The translations under genes were made by a program, and so were the position numbers. 64,000 nucleotides of DNA, from sequence record MW341595. One strand, 5' to 3'. Numbering within the stretch: the first letter of the stretch is position 1; each line of letters opens with the position of its first letter. Positions 5,840 through 38,544 of the stretch are shown piece after piece. The notes below the pieces were generated by a model, which searched no databases, was not told the origin of the DNA, and saw nothing but the letters and a program-made list of their open reading frames with translations. Source of the DNA: Shigella phage Sfk20.

Positions 5840-7040
5840 ATTTTGTAATAATGTCAAACTGTTCTTTAAAGCAGAAGCTTGAATCTTGATGCTGATACAA
5901 AAATTCATAAGCTTTTTCGCGTTCACGGTCATAAAGATTTCGGTCAGATGACAGTTCTTTAATACGCTCAAATGTTGATTCCATGTCATTTTCATCAAAC
6001 CAAACGATACCGCTATCATGAGAAATTAACGGAGTATTATCAACACGGAATTTTAAATTTTCGCCAGTAGATTTCCAAAATACTGGAATTGTTCCACATG
6101 CACCAAGCTCGAGATGAGTATATTCTAAAGAACGTTGTAGATATTTTTTATCCAACTTACTCAGCTGATAACCAAATCCGGATTTACTCATGCGTTCAAG
6201 CATTTCGCTATTTACATAACGGTCAAGAATTTGCGTTGGCAAATTAGGAGCAATTTTAATTTGGTCTACTTGATGAAGACGATAATACTCATATGGAATT
6301 CCTTTTTCTTTAATAGGAATGAACGCAGGAGAACGTTCCAGACCTTCCATAATAGTACTTAGCCCAGCAGGTTTAAGATGTTTTTCGTGAAAATCAAACA
6401 TCTGATAAAAACCTTTCCATGTAGTCGTACGACCAATCCAACGGTTGACATTCATGTTAATTTCAGAAACATCTTTCCAGTAGGTTGATCGAACTTTCGC
6501 AATATCCATAGGAGGCTGAAAGTTGTATACGGTCGGTGCTTCTTCAATATCATCAAACAGAGAAACGGTTTCTGGATACCATTCTTTCATCAGAACTTTA
6601 TTAAAATCACCATTATCAGAATGACTAAAAATAACATCTGCTCGACGAACAGTTTCTTCTAATCCCAAATTTCGGCGCAAAGAAAGAGAAGAATGGTCAT
6701 GTTGATAAACTACAACACGAACCGAAGGTTTAATGTTATCAATAATTTTTTTATAGTTATTAATAGTGTCTTCTTCGACTGAAGTAGCAGGAACTGAATT
6801 GATAATTAGAATATCACAATCATTTACCAGCTTAAGTGTTTTATCGTATTCTTTTGCCAATAAAACCGGAATTGAAAATGATTTATAATCATGCGCGCAA
6901 TTACGGGTAAATGATTTATCTTTAGCATAAACCAAAGTTACTTCATGACCATTTTTAATAAACCAATCACGCTGCTCGAGAGAAAATTTAGTTACGCCGC
7001 AACCTTCAAGACCTCGAGCCATAAAAATGCATACTTTCAT
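5838..7040 (-). CDS. a-gt: DNA alpha-glucosyltransferase
   Basis: 400 aa ORF in the a-gt position after gene 47; sequence consistent with recalled T4 alpha-glucosyltransferase. Confidence 0.85.
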   Translation of the reverse strand: MKVCIFMARGLEGCGVTKFSLEQRDWFIKNGHEVTLVYAKDKSFTRNCAHDYKSFSIPVLLAKEYDKTLKLVNDCDILIINSVPATSVEEDTINNYKKIIDNIKPSVRVVVYQHDHSSLSLRRNLGLEETVRRADVIFSHSDNGDFNKVLMKEWYPETVSLFDDIEEAPTVYNFQPPMDIAKVRSTYWKDVSEINMNVNRWIGRTTTWKGFYQMFDFHEKHLKPAGLSTIMEGLERSPAFIPIKEKGIPYEYYRLHQVDQIKIAPNLPTQILDRYVNSEMLERMSKSGFGYQLSKLDKKYLQRSLEYTHLELGACGTIPVFWKSTGENLKFRVDNTPLISHDSGIVWFDENDMESTFERIKELSSDRNLYDREREKAYEFLYQHQDSSFCFKEQFDIITK

Positions 7041-7090
7041 TTAATATCCTCATTGTTTTGGTTTATTTTACCAAAAATTTATAAAGCAAT

Positions 7091-7110
7091 ATAGGAGCCG
7101 AAGCTCCTAT
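7091..7110 (-). terminator. C(UUCG)G tetraloop hairpin
   Basis: AUAGGAGC-UUCG-GCUCCUAU after small ORF stop. Confidence 0.45.
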
Positions 7111-7280
7111 CCGCATAATACACCATACAGAGGCTCATTAGAGCTTCTAAATTTTATACGCTTATATGTTATAGTTCCTTCTGCTTTAGCTTTATCATGA
7201 GACTCTTTAAAGCGTCTCATCATTTCTGCTTTAGAGGAACGAATTTTATTATAATCTATTTCAGAAGTCTGGGTGTTCAT
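7107..7280 (-). CDS. hypothetical small protein (57 aa, below ORF-track cutoff)
   Basis: ATG at 7278-7280, reads MNTQTSEIDYNKIRSSKAEMMRRFKESHDKAKAEGTITYKRIKFRSSNEPLYGVLCG; stop followed at once by a UUCG hairpin. Confidence 0.35.
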   Translation of the reverse strand: MNTQTSEIDYNKIRSSKAEMMRRFKESHDKAKAEGTITYKRIKFRSSNEPLYGVLCG

Positions 7281-7283
7281 CTT

Positions 7284-7490
7284 TCACAGTTGCCACCATT
7301 TTTTGACTTGATAGGAATCAACCCACACTTTCATATTAGGGTCTGCTCTTACAATAGGAGGATTAACTTCTTTAATTGAACTATCATGGTATTCTTTTTC
7401 AGAAATTTTCACACAAAGATGACCGTTCAAAGATTCAGTAAATCCTGCATTAATTTTAAGACGCTTGAATTTTACGTGTGTAAGCATCAA
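7284..7490 (-). CDS. hypothetical protein
   Basis: 68 aa ORF. Confidence 0.4.
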   Translation of the reverse strand: MMLTHVKFKRLKINAGFTESLNGHLCVKISEKEYHDSSIKEVNPPIVRADPNMKVWVDSYQVKKWWQL

Positions 7491-32655: not shown

Positions 32656-33129
32656 TTATTTGAATGATTTGACGTACTGAATAGAGCCTTTGCTATTCAC
32701 GAAAGCGATTTTACCATTTTTGTTATACATGGTAGCAGTACGCTGATAACCATAAGTTTGTTTACCAGATTGATAACCAACTAATGCAAAATTATCTTCA
32801 CCCATTTTATTCTGCTTCGCGCGGATACGTTCATGACCATGTGCCATAAGAACCTTAGCGTCGCCAGTTGCAATGGATCTACGAGTTTTTTCATCTTCAA
32901 CTGTATTAACAAAGTCGTCAAATGAATCAAATTTAGCGTGAGATTTATTATACAGTTTTCCATCTACTGCATAATTATATCCCTGTACATCCATCTCAAC
33001 TTCTGTACCATCATCCAATACAGCAGTGATTTTTTGACCTTTTTTAAATTTCAAAAGATCAGTAAAAGATTCAGCGATAATTTGAGAATTAATAGCTGCT
33101 TCAGTGATAAATTCTTGATATGTTTTCAT
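32656..33129 (-). CDS. candidate internal (capsid-packaged) protein with capsid targeting sequence
   Basis: N-terminus MKTYQEFITEA matches T4 internal-protein CTS consensus MKTYQEFIAE-A with (L/I)xE cleavage site. Confidence 0.6.
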   Translation of the reverse strand: MKTYQEFITEAAINSQIIAESFTDLLKFKKGQKITAVLDDGTEVEMDVQGYNYAVDGKLYNKSHAKFDSFDDFVNTVEDEKTRRSIATGDAKVLMAHGHERIRAKQNKMGEDNFALVGYQSGKQTYGYQRTATMYNKNGKIAFVNSKGSIQYVKSFK

Positions 33130-33138
33130 GTGTTTCCT

Positions 33139-33555
33139 TTAAATGTAAATAGTTTTACCGTAGTATTTATACCAGTGTGGCTTCATTAAAATTTTTTCAT
33201 CGAGTCGTTGTTGACTCAACTTAATAGCTGATTTGCATGGATTATAATCATTTTTCCATTCTGCTGGAATATCGCTGATGTCAGGAACTTCAGTATCTTT
33301 TATATTAAACCCACGTTTTAAGCATTCTGTTATAATGTCTGATTGACGCTTTCGCAAAAATTCTAACTTATCATAAAAGAACGTAACATGACCAGAGCCT
33401 AAAATAAACTCGGAAGATATTTTAAAATCTTTAACTCGCTTACCATTTGCAACATGTTTACGAACTATACCAAAAACACGCGGCAGTTCACGGTATTCTG
33501 CGATTAAATGTTGATCAGCAAGTTCAGATACTAAAGTCAAATTAATACGAGTCAT
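33139..33555 (-). CDS. denV: endonuclease V (pyrimidine dimer DNA glycosylase)
   Basis: 138 aa; N-terminus [29 protein letters not shown] matches recalled T4 DenV. Confidence 0.93.
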
Positions 33556-33578: not shown

Positions 33579-33612
33579 ATATACTATCACAGTTCTAGAA
33601 GAAAGTAAACAA
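33579..33612 (-). promoter_or_regulatory. T4-type early promoter upstream of denV
   Basis: GTTTAC - 18 nt - TAGTAT on minus strand. Confidence 0.5.
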
Positions 33613-33614
33613 CT

Positions 33615-34145
<531 letters not shown>

Positions 34146-34601
34146 TTAAAAGAGGCTGTTCATTATTCGGTAAAGTGAAGGACCCATCACATATTGCCAC
34201 TGAGTACGAGGAATAAGAGCAAAAGCATCCATCTCTGGAATCATAACGCCATCTTTATTTTCAAAATAAGACTCGCAATGGCAATTTCTAAACATCTCAT
34301 GCTCTACTGGAATCGTATAATAAAATAACTGTAAGTCTTTATTACTGGAATATTTAAATACACCTAGGTCTTCTAGAAGGTCTGAATTATAATCGATAAA
34401 ACCAGTCTCTTCTGAGCATTCTCTTTTTGCAGCTTCCAGTGCATTCAAATCAGAACTTTCTACACGGCCCTTTGGAATATCCCAGCGATGTGCCATCATT
34501 CCAGGTTTACGAGAACCAGTAACTCGTCCCATAAATAAATCTTTATCTTCTGTCATAAAGATAATACCAGCTGATAATGTTTTCATTTTAATTTCCTGCA
34601 T
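34146..34601 (-). CDS. nudE: Nudix hydrolase
   Basis: 151 aa; Nudix box GRVESSDLNALEAAKRECSEETG. Confidence 0.75.
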   Translation of the reverse strand: MQEIKMKTLSAGIIFMTEDKDLFMGRVTGSRKPGMMAHRWDIPKGRVESSDLNALEAAKRECSEETGFIDYNSDLLEDLGVFKYSSNKDLQLFYYTIPVEHEMFRNCHCESYFENKDGVMIPEMDAFALIPRTQWQYVMGPSLYRIMNSLF

Positions 34602-35071
34602 TCAGTGATAAAGTTATTTAAATTTTGAGTATATTTCTTTTCATCAAAAATCTTTTGTTGTCTGCGTAGCCGCCATGGCATTTCAATGAACGTGTACCAT
34701 ATCCCAGATAATATTGCTGCTGTAAAAATATTAACAAGTATGGTTAAAAGAATCCAATCTCCTATTCTGTCCATTGGATTTTTTATAAAAAAGTAAAATA
34801 CGAATGATGTCACAGGAAGACTAATAATATACCACAGAATCATAATTTTATCTGTGAACCAATCAGCGTTCGTTAACTTAGCGCGACCATTATGAATACA
34901 CACGAATTTATCGTCTGTTATAGTAGATGGCTTAACTGGTTGATATCCCATTCTAAACTCCCTAATCAACAAATTTTTCATATCTTCGGAACAGCCATTC
35001 CAGTCAACTCTATCAACTGGAATGCCATCATCCCCATCATCTAAATCATACCAGCGAGTTTTTAAAATCAT
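34583..35071 (-). CDS. hypothetical membrane protein (family of three)
   Basis: 162 aa; two TM helices; C-terminal motif NNFITECRKLK. Confidence 0.5.
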   Translation of the reverse strand: MILKTRWYDLDDGDDGIPVDRVDWNGCSEDMKNLLIREFRMGYQPVKPSTITDDKFVCIHNGRAKLTNADWFTDKIMILWYIISLPVTSFVFYFFIKNPMDRIGDWILLTILVNIFTAAILSGIWYTFIEMPWRLRRQQKIFDEKKYTQNLNNFITECRKLK

Positions 35072-35430
35072 TTGATTTTCCTACAATCATTCACGAATTC
35101 TTTCATTGATTCATTTTCAATATAAGACATGTAGCTATTGTATTCTTTTAATTGTATTTTGTAATCCTTTTTTCTTTGCCAATTTATTTTAAAATTATCA
35201 TAATGAAAATATAGTATAGTACCAAAGAATGAAAATAATGAAATCGCTATAGTATAACGAAGTTCGCTCCAAACCTCTGTTATAATTGCTGAACTATCGA
35301 CGTTTAAAATAAAACAGTCAATCATTAGTCCAATAAGACTACCCGCAAGAGCTGCAAATACTGATACGGCAAGAATTAATAGTGCCTCAAGAAACGAATA
35401 TTTGACTTTATTTAGTTTTGGCTTTTGCAT
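35068..35430 (-). CDS. hypothetical membrane protein (family of three)
   Basis: 120 aa; two TM helices; C-terminal motif KEFVNDCRKIK. Confidence 0.5.
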   Translation of the reverse strand: MQKPKLNKVKYSFLEALLILAVSVFAALAGSLIGLMIDCFILNVDSSAIITEVWSELRYTIAISLFSFFGTILYFHYDNFKINWQRKKDYKIQLKEYNSYMSYIENESMKEFVNDCRKIK

Positions 35431-35825
35431 CGTGATTCCTTAACAAATTTCATAATTTCGTTAAATTCATACATATCTAGTTTAAGCTGGTGTTCCTTTT
35501 TAATCTTTTTACACTGAGCTTTCCATTCACGTACGCGTTTACGATAATGTCTTCCTTGATACCAGTATCCTACCCAATTTACAGGTACTAATAAAAATGG
35601 AACTACCAATGGAAGAATTAGTGTTGCTCCAAATATTACACCAGATTCAATATCAGTCATAACGTCTATAACCATTCCAGCAATCAGCAGAATCACAAAT
35701 GATACAGCTACCACAGGACCTATTAACACATCAGTAGAAATTAGCTGACGCTTTGGTTCATACTTCACAGGTTTACTTGGAAGGTATAGTGATGGCTTTG
35801 ACATATTCTCTACATTCCTTAACAA
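35412..35825 (-). CDS. hypothetical membrane protein (family of three)
   Basis: 137 aa; two TM helices; C-terminal motif MKFVKESRCK. Confidence 0.5.
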   Translation of the reverse strand: MLRNVENMSKPSLYLPSKPVKYEPKRQLISTDVLIGPVVAVSFVILLIAGMVIDVMTDIESGVIFGATLILPLVVPFLLVPVNWVGYWYQGRHYRKRVREWKAQCKKIKKEHQLKLDMYEFNEIMKFVKESRCKSQN

Positions 35826-36393
35826 ATTTTTCTAATAATAAATCGCTTTCAAAATTGGGATTTTCTACGAATTTATCAAAAAGATCATCAACAATAGTTA
35901 AGATATTCTTTTTACTAAGAATACGTTTATTTTCATGCTTTGTTTCAGAATCAACTATAAGAGTAAAGAAATATTTCTTTCCCTGAAATTTTACCGTAGT
36001 ATCAATATAGAACAAATTTGACTTTTGTAAATTACGTTTAAACCATGCATCACTTAAACTATAAACGCCAAGATAATCATAATCGTCGTTTAAATAACAA
36101 ACCGTCCATTCAGGAGAAATGAAATCAGTAAATTCAACATCAAAATCACACGTCAATGAATGAATTGATTCAATACTGTTAATGAGTATTCCAGGACGTA
36201 TTAAAGACTTTTTACCTCTAGAAAATCTTCCGGAAAGGCTTTCATCAGTTTCATATGAAGACCCCCAATAGTAATTACGTCCTTCTGCCATGCGTTTAAG
36301 AGCATTTAGTAATTGGTCTGGAACATCAACCTGTCTTTGGAACTCTTCAAACATTGAATTGAAATCACTTTGCATTTTCATTTTCATTTTCAT
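35773..36393 (-). CDS. hypothetical protein
   Basis: 206 aa ORF. Confidence 0.5.
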   Translation of the reverse strand: MKMKMKMQSDFNSMFEEFQRQVDVPDQLLNALKRMAEGRNYYWGSSYETDESLSGRFSRGKKSLIRPGILINSIESIHSLTCDFDVEFTDFISPEWTVCYLNDDYDYLGVYSLSDAWFKRNLQKSNLFYIDTTVKFQGKKYFFTLIVDSETKHENKRILSKKNILTIVDDLFDKFVENPNFESDLLLEKFVKECREYVKAITIPSK

Positions 36394-36410
36394 TCCTATT
36401 TACTCCAAGT

Positions 36411-36432
36411 ATAAGGGGCCGAAGCCCCTTAT
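36411..36432 (-). terminator. C(UUCG)G tetraloop hairpin
   Basis: AUAAGGGGC-UUCG-GCCCCUUAU directly after stop. Confidence 0.5.
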
Positions 36433-36434
36433 CA

Positions 36435-37028
36435 TTATTTCAGAGAATTAATGTATTCCTGAACATCGGCAGAGGTAGTTTCAACCCCAGAAATATTACC
36501 GTTAAAGGTTTCAACTCGAGCAAGGGTATCTTCAATATCAACCTTAGTCAGTGCTGCAATTTCAACTACATCATCGGCAGTACTAATTCCAAGGGCATTT
36601 GCTGCACGAGTTTCACGGATATATTCCAATTTAACCGCAAGTTCTTGACGAGCATCATCTAACTCAACTACTTTCTTGGCGATTTCAATTCGCATTTCAG
36701 CATAACCGTCAGCCTTAGTAGTCAACTGCTCAGCTGTTCGACGATATAGTAAACCGAGTTTAGCATGCATTGTTACATCTTGACCTTCGGAAAGAAGTTT
36801 ACGAATTTCACGCTCTTTTGATTCGGCCTGTCGATTCTTTTCGATAACAAGTTCACGAATACGTTTTTCTTCATTAATAGATTTAACAGAAGCAGTTTTT
36901 AGATCTTTAATTTTATCAAGTAGTTTTGCTGCTGCAGCAGTATACTGTTCTTCAACAGATAGATTTTTAGCCATAGCAGAACCAAGTTTAGTGCGAATAA
37001 ACTCAACAATTTTCTTCAGTGTGTTCAT
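36435..37028 (-). CDS. hypothetical coiled-coil protein
   Basis: 197 aa, largely heptad-like charged sequence; UUCG hairpin after stop. Confidence 0.5.
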
Positions 37029-37980: not shown

Positions 37981-38544
37981 TTATTTGCCTAGTTTAGTTA
38001 TTATAGCTTCGGCAGCAGCTTTTAGCTTAGATGCGGTGTTAATACGATTTTTAATTTCAGTATACGCATCGCCAAGAACATCAAGGCTATCAGAATAAAC
38101 ACTTACACTATTGCGTTCGCTATTTGAAATAGAACCTTTAGTTTTACGATCAAAATCGGTGTACACGTCTTGAAGATCGCGGGCTGCCTTCTTTGCATCA
38201 TCCAATGCATCAAGAGCTTTATTCAAAGCATTAACGTATTTTTTAGTGTCGAACATATTCTTAGAAATTTTAACAGGTGCACGTTCAGGAGTAGCTAATA
38301 CAGATTTAGGAACCTGAGCGCCAGATGCCAATTTCTTAGAAATTTTGAAAAATGCTTTATTGAATTTATTTTCTTGACTCATTGTAAAAGAACTATTATC
38401 GATGTTGTACATTTCAATAGCTTTAGCTTTCCACTTAAGAAAATCGCCGCGGTCTTTTGGGTCCAATTGGAAGAATACTTTAGTAAGATCTGCTTCAGAT
38501 GGTAATTTTGCTGCTTCGGTTAAAAATTCGGCATAGGTTTTCAT
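37981..38544 (-). CDS. candidate internal (capsid-packaged) protein with capsid targeting sequence
   Basis: N-terminus MKTYAEFLTEA (CTS consensus with LTE-A cleavage site); own terminator hairpin downstream. Confidence 0.6.
   Translation of the reverse strand: MKTYAEFLTEAAKLPSEADLTKVFFQLDPKDRGDFLKWKAKAIEMYNIDNSSFTMSQENKFNKAFFKISKKLASGAQVPKSVLATPERAPVKISKNMFDTKKYVNALNKALDALDDAKKAARDLQDVYTDFDRKTKGSISNSERNSVSVYSDSLDVLGDAYTEIKNRINTASKLKAAAEAIITKLGK

Follow-up and report, generated by a model that had tools for sequence, protein, structure and literature searches.

The 64,000-nucleotide stretch of Shigella phage Sfk20 analyzed here (sequence record MW341595; "the window" throughout) comes from a T4-type myovirus (Tequatrovirus), and its region 33600-36500 shares 92-98% nucleotide identity with hundreds of Tequatrovirus records including T4. 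Four consecutive genes of this region, e.5, e.4, e.3, and e.2, encode proteins that close with the same short peptide, F-[IV]-x-[DE]-[CS]-R, and comparison of their sequences across phage genera indicates that this motif is maintained by selection at the amino-acid level. We regard the chances as about even that the shared tail serves in the cytoplasm as a tag for protein-protein interaction, by which neighboring proteins assemble mutually or dock on one common partner. The genes have long been known and annotated but, like many others of T4, e.2-e.6 have been without an assigned function since the genome was sequenced. In the searchable literature, where absence is not proof, we found no account of the shared protein-level motif, of its spread over many families, or of the way it coincides with cassette breakpoints, and the annotations of the T4-type records examined make no mention of a shared C-terminal motif. 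The motif remains invariant between genera even at overall identities of 13-30%, which gives experiments a concrete handle and turns five orphan T4 genes into a testable set.

The Shared C-Terminal Motif

The genes e.6, e.5, e.4, e.3, e.2, nudE, e, and denV all lie on the minus strand of the window, and the order e.6-e.5-e.4-e.3-e.2-nudE-e is identical to that of annotated T4 (AF158101), PP01, and RB14. The initial annotation, made from the letters of the window, had described three tandem open reading frames (ORFs) as two-helix membrane proteins with a conserved C-terminus; all three hold, and a fourth motif gene, e.5 (35773-36393), had been missed. Two of the three exist as listed there, namely e.2 (34583-35071; 162 aa, ending NNFITECRKLK) and e.3 (35068-35430; 120 aa, ending KEFVNDCRKIK). 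The third, given as 35412-35825, also exists, but judging from annotated orthologs its start is most likely the ATG at 35804 and not the TTG at 35825; e.4 orthologs begin MSKPSLY or MSKPTLY, and the 130-aa ATG start is the one annotated in T4, PP01, and RB14. In this form e.4 (35412-35804) starts MSKPSLYLPSKP and ends KFVKESRCKSQN. The product of e.5 is a soluble protein of 206 aa with no transmembrane (TM) segment, and it ends EKFVKECREYVKAITIPSK. Each of the four proteins matches its own PHROG profile end to end (e.2, PHROG 2203, E=4e-79; e.3, PHROG 2330, E=1e-55; e.4, PHROG 2604, E=3.5e-70 over residues 1-130; e.5, PHROG 2607, E=2.6e-110).

Kyte-Doolittle profiles contain two hydrophobic segments in each of e.2, e.3, and e.4, in agreement with the two helices per ORF first reported. 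The e.2 protein has a soluble N-terminal domain of ~75 aa, TM segments at ~76-96 and ~105-127, and a basic 35-aa tail; e.3 combines a basic N-terminus (MQKPKLNKVK) with two TM segments and a 44-aa tail, and e.4 has two TM segments and a very basic 51-aa tail with an internal EWKAQCKKIK. The N-termini and tails of all three are rich in K/R while the inter-TM loops are acidic or short, and by the positive-inside rule both ends of these proteins are probably cytoplasmic. With both ends predicted to be cytoplasmic, the motif would be displayed in the cytoplasm on the two-TM proteins, as it is on soluble e.5.

The core of the motif is F-[IV]-x-x-C-R, and the strict form F-[IV]-x-[DE]-[CS]-R closes e.2, e.3, e.4, and e.5. 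A general form can be written as phi-x-x-F-[IV]-x-x-C-[RK] followed by basic residues; in the e.4 lineage the Cys position is taken by S, V, I, or M. The longer ending R(K/C)(L/I)K proposed at first fits e.2 (CRKLK) and e.3 (CRKIK) and does not fit e.4 (SRCKSQN). In a six-frame scan of the 64-kb window the strict motif occurs five times, four of them at the C-termini of these consecutive genes. Four ORFs have the strict motif within their last 28 residues against an expectation of 0.0145 from residue shuffles of all 220 ORFs, which places the common ending beyond chance. Family-weighted position-specific scoring matrix (PSSM) scores were 31.4 bits for e.2, 24.5 for e.5, 20.2 for e.3, and 19.9 for e.4, and none of the 412 other ORFs scored in the window and T4 reference exceeded 7.3. 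Across 126 kb of the T4 reference, F[IV]..CR is found in e.2, e.3, and e.5 only, the members that keep the Cys. The stretch is short and amphipathic, and helical in an AlphaFold2 model of e.5 that is poor overall (predicted local distance difference test, pLDDT, 44). A degenerate DNA scan of IMG/VR for E-F-I-K-E-C-R-K returned three unrelated internal or N-terminal matches, for example in helix 1 of an XRE-type helix-turn-helix. The e.6 protein, whose end (..VQEYINSLK) has a similar spacing, was considered as a further carrier and rejected, as it is not among the top 14 ORFs by PSSM.

The 5' end of e.5 (36373-36393, minus strand) consists of a hexamer repeat, (ATGAAA)n followed by ATGCAA, in which the copy number of the start codon varies. 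The protein accordingly begins MKMKMKMQ in the window, MKMKMQ in contigs L009 and L010, and MKMQ in T4 and PP01.

Junctions and Cassette Turnover

The genes e.5, e.4, e.3, and e.2 are predicted to form a translationally coupled chain that runs into nudE (a Nudix hydrolase; 34146-34586, minus strand), the last gene of the chain, which does not carry the motif. Every stop had been described as overlapping the next start in an ATGA; this is the case for e.3/e.2 (35068-35071) and e.2/nudE (34583-34586, where nudE begins MKTLS...), the left-hand and right-hand boundaries of the e.2 cassette, whereas the 3' end of e.4 overlaps the 5' end of e.3 by 19 nt (35412-35430) and that of e.5 overlaps e.4 by 32 nt (35773-35804), both in two reading frames on the minus strand. 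The suggestion that the junctions double as translational coupling sites is well founded, since the next Shine-Dalgarno (SD) sequence and ATG lie in or just after the motif codons. In e.2 these codons (F154-I-T-E-C-R159; 34595-34612, minus strand) read TTT ATC ACT GAA TGC AGG, with the following AGGAAA as the SD of nudE; in e.3 (F112-V-N-D-C-R117; 35080-35097, minus strand) they read TTC GTG AAT GAT TGT AGG, and AGGAAA is the SD of e.2. The e.4 codons (F120-V-K-E-S-R125; 35430-35447, minus strand) are TTT GTT AAG GAA TCA CGA, in which AAGGAA is the SD of e.3 and the e.3 ATG overlaps the R-C codons, and those of e.5 (F190-V-K-E-C-R195; 35809-35826, minus strand) are TTT GTT AAG GAA TGT AGA. No significant RNA folding was detected at the junctions (z -0.04 to +0.6). 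With the junction RNAs unstructured, any coupling would rest on the stop/start overlap and not on the unmasking of a hairpin. A RegA operator or RegB site was also considered for the junctions; GGAG, which we take to be the RegB site, is absent from the four T4-type junctions.

When 68-nt junction segments are compared, two similar pairs emerge, e.3→e.2 with e.2→nudE (z 5.0) and e.5→e.4 with e.4→e.3 (z 3.3). The sole exact DNA repeat is a 16-nt direct repeat, AAATTTGTTAAGGAAT, in the tails of e.4 and e.5 (35435-35450 and 35814-35829). PP01 and contig L007 are without e.2, and their e.3 bears the tail of e.2 (..TGCAGGAAATTAAAATGAAAAC) and runs directly into nudE; among Tequatrovirus-type records, ~447 have e.2 vs. 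~498 with e.3 or e.4. In Dhakavirus-like phages e.4 may be present or absent, and the junction of the e.4-less form is a hybrid within the repeated AARGRGGTTCRWAATG. As the indel breakpoints of both e.2 and e.4 fall inside the repeated junctions, these act as recombination breakpoints for the gain and loss of single genes. The initial annotation had raised serial duplication as a possible origin of the repeated C-terminus; the e.2 and e.4 breakpoints support the junctions as recombination substrates, while whole-gene serial duplication is at most marginal and concerns e.3/e.4 only. The e.2 gene of the window is intact (162 aa), whereas that of the T4 reference is frameshifted in an A-run relative to the window and most relatives, leaving a 102-aa N-terminal ORF and a 36-aa remnant (L043 18652-18960; AF158101 67472-67582). 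The remnant retains both the motif and the ATGA overlap with nudE.

This turnover resembles that described for PeSLs, which are non-coding units of a sigma-70 promoter and a terminator hairpin (PMC2839356, 2010; Comeau et al., 2014, PMC4122927). In both cases short boundary repeats in hyperplastic regions serve as breakpoints at which related phages differ by the insertion, deletion, or replacement of single genes (PMC2839356; PMC4122927). The repeats of the e.5-e.2 array differ in being coding (C-terminal tail, SD, and ATG), in having no hairpin (z ~0) and no promoter requirement, and in also specifying a conserved peptide. The locus reveals a second way in which single-gene cassettes turn over in the hyperplastic regions of T4-type phages, by repeated coding junctions instead of PeSL units and with coupling left intact.

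Annotations of the nudE start at the last junction differ. In the T4 reference the gene starts at an upstream ATG (34601, MQEIKMKTLS), which lacks an SD and falls within the E-C codons of the e.2 motif. PP01 has it start at the downstream ATG (34586, MKTLS), the one that follows AGGAAA and makes up the ATGA overlap, and this shorter version looks more likely.

Selection on the Peptide

The tails could be alike simply because the next gene's start and ribosome-binding site have to be encoded in them and because they have been homogenized by recombination at the junctions, the peptide itself being functionless. Several observations fit this account. The next SD is contained in the K-E codons (AAGGAA/AAGGAG) or R-K codons (AGGAAA) in many, and indeed most, copies, with the next ATG at -2 to +8 nt; the similar junction pairs, the 16-nt repeat, and the breakpoints described above are what recombination at the junctions would leave; and in e.4, where the start codon of e.3 directly abuts the motif, Cys is the position that is given up. 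The pattern of conservation, however, points elsewhere. The residues that are invariant (F0, C4, and R5 of the motif) are not the SD-encoding ones, and over unique sequences their codons vary synonymously across genera, with TTT or TTC for Phe, TGT and TGC at ~1:1 for Cys, and CGT, CGC, AGA, AGG, CGA, or CGG for Arg; motif positions 2 and 3 vary freely among many residues. Alignment of 13 e.5 sequences, which share 13-47% identity, leaves just five columns without variation (M1, N102, F190, C194, and R195), and F, C, and R form the only invariant block of the protein. Furthermore, the e.5 orthologs of Dhakavirus-like phages (FIAECR, TTT ATT GCT GAA TGT CGT, with no SD-like sequence inside) and of KP179 retain F-I-x-x-C-R even though the next SD lies 10-20 nt further downstream, and tightly packed neighboring genes of a W-V-S-S-S-x-x-C family do without the motif.

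Since variation in the codons leaves F, C, and R unchanged, the peptide is under selection in its own right, and not only the overlapping ribosome-binding site. A repeated C-terminus that is purely a by-product of the junction is at odds with these data, and we judge a functionless peptide to be unlikely. The two constraints coexist, and neither the peptide nor the ribosome-binding site alone accounts for the sequence.

Distribution Among T4-Like Phages

Loci were gathered by anchoring on e.6, which yielded 34 from IMG/VR and two more via exact-protein look-up. In loci that extend to distant T4-like phages, at least 16 ORF families located between e.6 and e, two-TM and soluble, end in the motif without any BLAST link to one another; soluble motif families of 95-150 aa exist besides e.5. 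The rate is 5.85 motifs per 1000 aa in C-terminal zones vs. 0.47 elsewhere. From one to six consecutive motif-ending ORFs follow e.6, and the first gene downstream of e.6 is a relative of e.5 with the motif in all loci but one, where that gene is broken. Three e.5 subfamilies are linked by hhalign with P down to 6e-11.

The motif is kept in the orthologs of RB69 (Mosigvirus), KP179 (Jiaodavirus), a Yersinia phage, and Dhakavirus, whose e.2 homolog, at ~30% identity, ends ..SFIEECRK. Contig L047, with an e.6 of 48% identity, has five consecutive motif-ending ORFs between e.6 and NUDIX-lysozyme-denV, with the ends FVKECRK.., FIKECRYGD, FVKECRK, FVKEIRQ, and FIIEARGKQ. Aeromonas phage 31 has the e.5-like member only (..FVDYCRRTASKK). 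In homolog searches all relatives of e.3 were above 70% identity, and an exhaustive representative search with e.5 returned six proteins; the small number of relatives recovered indicates that these families are narrow and phage-restricted.

Outside Tequatrovirus, the motif genes are followed by a second array of small soluble ORFs of 65-105 aa (L003 3231-4026; L005 3191-3978; L013-L040 ~6000-7400). Their C-termini read ..G-[AG]-W-[VI]-S-S-S-x-x-C* or ..IW-x-[PS]-S-S-C* and make up another family with a shared motif, here with a terminal Cys.

Relationship of e.2, e.3, and e.4

Plain tandem paralogy, in which e.2, e.3, and e.4 arose by serial duplication of whole genes and the tail is the slowest-diverging remnant of their common ancestor, had been the original interpretation. 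These three proteins do share an architecture of two TM segments, a basic tail, and the motif, to which e.2 adds its 75-aa N-terminal domain, and the best case can be made for e.3 and e.4, whose N-termini (MQKPKL and MSKPSL) and flanking junctions are alike. BLASTP aligned e.3 and e.4 collinearly at 23% identity (E=0.02), while the match of e.2 with e.3 was limited to the last 14 residues (E=0.009) and e.4 vs. e.5 gave no alignment. Profile-profile comparison by hhalign, with family alignments built from 40 loci, gave P=5e-5 over 17 columns for e.2-e.3 and P=2.4e-5 over 36 columns for e.3-e.4, in both cases in the tail only. With the motif cut off, a marginal signal persisted for e.3-e.4 (P=3.4e-4 over 21 juxtamembrane columns), compared with P=0.06-0.25 for e.2 vs. 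e.3 or e.4.

Common descent of e.3 and e.4 is therefore plausible, whereas that of e.2 with either is unproven, as e.2 aligns to both only over the last 8-17 columns and the proteins belong to separate PHROG families, four in all with e.5. Nor can common descent of e.2-e.4 explain the presence of the motif on soluble e.5, or on the soluble families of other loci, and a neutral remnant would not be expected to be the sole invariant block at 13-20% identity. Paralogy as the explanation of the tail thus seems to us improbable, to about the same degree as a functionless peptide.

Within the e.4 tail, residues ~98-107 (35484-35513, minus strand) contain a second conserved element of the family, E-W-K-x-Q-C, which resembles the CRKIK-type ends of e.2 and e.3. 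It may be an internal duplication or an extension of the tail.

Possible Roles of the Motif

If the tail is an interaction tag, co-translated neighbors would bind each other through it, or all of them would dock on one partner. The obvious phage candidate for such a partner is e.6, by linkage only, and a host protein is equally possible. One piece of DNA encodes both the tag and the start of the next gene, so that recombinants formed at a junction retain the two together. New gene bodies could in this way be plugged into the array at the junctions, with the tag and the coupling retained.

Several points weigh against an interaction tag. The conservation of K-E (AAGGAA) and R-K (AGGAAA) could partly reflect a nucleotide constraint, as the motif overlaps the next ribosome-binding site in most copies. 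The Cys is dispensable throughout the e.4 lineage, and the C-terminus of e.6 does not match the motif. Judging from the frameshift in the T4 reference, at least e.2 can be dispensed with under laboratory conditions. The AlphaFold2 model of e.5, derived from a 12-sequence alignment, is too poor to use (pLDDT 44). Finally, the loci are phylogenetically related, so that the counts of occurrence do not represent independent events.

A broader version of the interaction-tag reading is that the motif is a modular C-terminal address tag that delivers a changing set of membrane and soluble accessory proteins to one cytoplasmic or inner-membrane machine, possibly e.6, and that recombination at the junctions swaps the bodies while preserving targeting and coupled expression, as a coding-sequence equivalent of PeSL shuffling. 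We put this forward tentatively, as a possibility that is more doubtful than probable. The internal proteins of T4 offer a parallel, in that an N-terminal capsid targeting sequence of the MKTYQEFIAE type is found on otherwise unrelated, cassette-like Ip genes. In both systems, accessory proteins that are diverse, quickly exchanged, and encoded in the same region of the genome would share a short conserved terminal peptide. The tag of the e.5-e.2 array differs in being C-terminal, in having another sequence, and in its carriers, which are membrane or cytoplasmic proteins with no expected place in the head. Should it be true that the tag recruits diverse proteins to one site, it would link the rapid diversification of accessory proteins to a fixed machinery.

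An alternative in which the peptide would act from within the ribosome is a cis-acting nascent-peptide element, with the motif pausing or arresting the ribosome at the end of the ORF and thereby setting the translation of the overlapping downstream gene. SecM, MifM, and VemP are precedents for arrest at the C-termini of secreted or membrane proteins. Conservation at the amino-acid level, the location of the motif at the 3' ends of ORFs whose last codons cover the next SD and ATG, its occurrence on proteins with unrelated bodies, and its absence from e.6 and nudE, which are both followed by gaps of 36-40 nt, would all be in keeping with such an element. The geometry, however, is not what an arrest peptide would lead one to expect. 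The spacing is unfixed, with 1-14 residues from the motif to its own stop and -2 to +22 nt to the next ATG, and the distance from TM2 to the motif ranges from 17 to 68 aa across families, which speaks against a force-sensing arrest peptide; moreover, there is no RNA structure at the junctions for a stalled ribosome to unmask (z ~0). We therefore think ribosome arrest very unlikely. A role of these genes in superinfection exclusion, lysis timing, or membrane-level immunity, as raised by the initial annotation, is equally hard to credit: they do encode small inner-membrane proteins of the appropriate class in a non-essential gene region adjoining the lysozyme gene e, but BLASTP of e.2-e.5 against 17 small membrane or lysis proteins of T4 (Imm, Imm.1, Sp, rI, rI.1, rIII, T holin etc.) reached no E better than 0.34, no Pfam, NCBIfam, or PADLOC model matched, nothing was found in the searchable literature, and the genes are coupled to nudE and not to e, which follows after a gap. 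These readings and that of an interaction tag are not mutually exclusive, and our degrees of confidence in them need not add up to certainty; exclusion or lysis timing, for instance, concerns the biological function of the genes and not the tail.

Functional labels attached to these genes in databases vary. The T4 reference describes e.2-e.4 as "conserved hypothetical, predicted membrane protein" and e.5 and e.6 as "conserved hypothetical protein," and e.3 is labeled "predicted membrane protein" in both T4 and PP01. Other GenBank labels are inconsistent, with "sulfurtransferase," "DNA primase," "terminase small subunit," "head outer capsid protein," and "major capsid protein" for e.3 or e.4 and "host specificity protein" for e.6; no Pfam or NCBIfam model supports any function label given to the e.2-e.6 genes. 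Scans of e.2-e.6 with Pfam, NCBIfam, and PADLOC produced nothing above threshold (for PADLOC, no match at an E of 0.1 or better).

e.6 and Flanking Elements

The candidate partner e.6 (36435-37028, minus strand; 197 aa, C-terminus ..EYINSLK) is an all-helical and highly conserved protein. It lies directly upstream of the array in every locus examined and is the most conserved gene of the cluster, with 43-99% identity across phages of Escherichia, Klebsiella, Serratia, Yersinia, and Aeromonas. In its AlphaFold2 model (pLDDT 76) an N-terminal helix precedes a long helical hairpin, and the C-terminal helices are short. When the model was searched against the PDB with Foldseek, the nine best matches were all Vipp1, followed by CdvB2 and PspA, at weak E-values of 2.6e-3 to 5.5e-2. 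Against Pfam there was no match of e.6 to PspA_IM30 at an E of 1 or better, and a PDB profile search returned DARPin noise only. As modeled, e.6 is a long-helical-hairpin protein of the general membrane-scaffold type; membership of the PspA family is not established. A likeness to the PspA/Vipp1 (IM30)/ESCRT-III proteins with PspB/PspC lies in the helical hairpin of the e.6 model and the adjoining genes for small inner-membrane proteins, and we use it as a working analogy only. Searches on e.2-e.6 and on phage PspA-like proteins found nothing relevant in the searchable literature.

Between e.6 and e.5 there is a hairpin with a UUCG tetraloop (AUAAGGGGC-UUCG-GCCCCUUAU; 36411-36432, minus strand; minimum free energy -15.6, z -3.1) and no U tract on the coding strand. 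It is the only stable RNA structure found in the array and may be an RNA-stability or processing element, or a PeSL-like remnant. An early-type promoter-like site, TTTACA-17-TATTAT, is located upstream of e.6 (37084-37056).

On the other side of the array, nudE is followed by the lysozyme gene e (33615-34109, minus strand) and denV (33139-33555, minus strand). The motif genes had been placed downstream of lysozyme and nudE, but by the direction of transcription they are upstream of both. The window is without ipII/ipIII between denV and e, their place in T4. Two ORFs on the minus strand flank the locus, at 32656-33129 and 37981-38544, and begin MKTYQEFITEA and MKTYAEFLTEA, respectively, starts that we take to be the capsid targeting sequence signature of T4 internal proteins.

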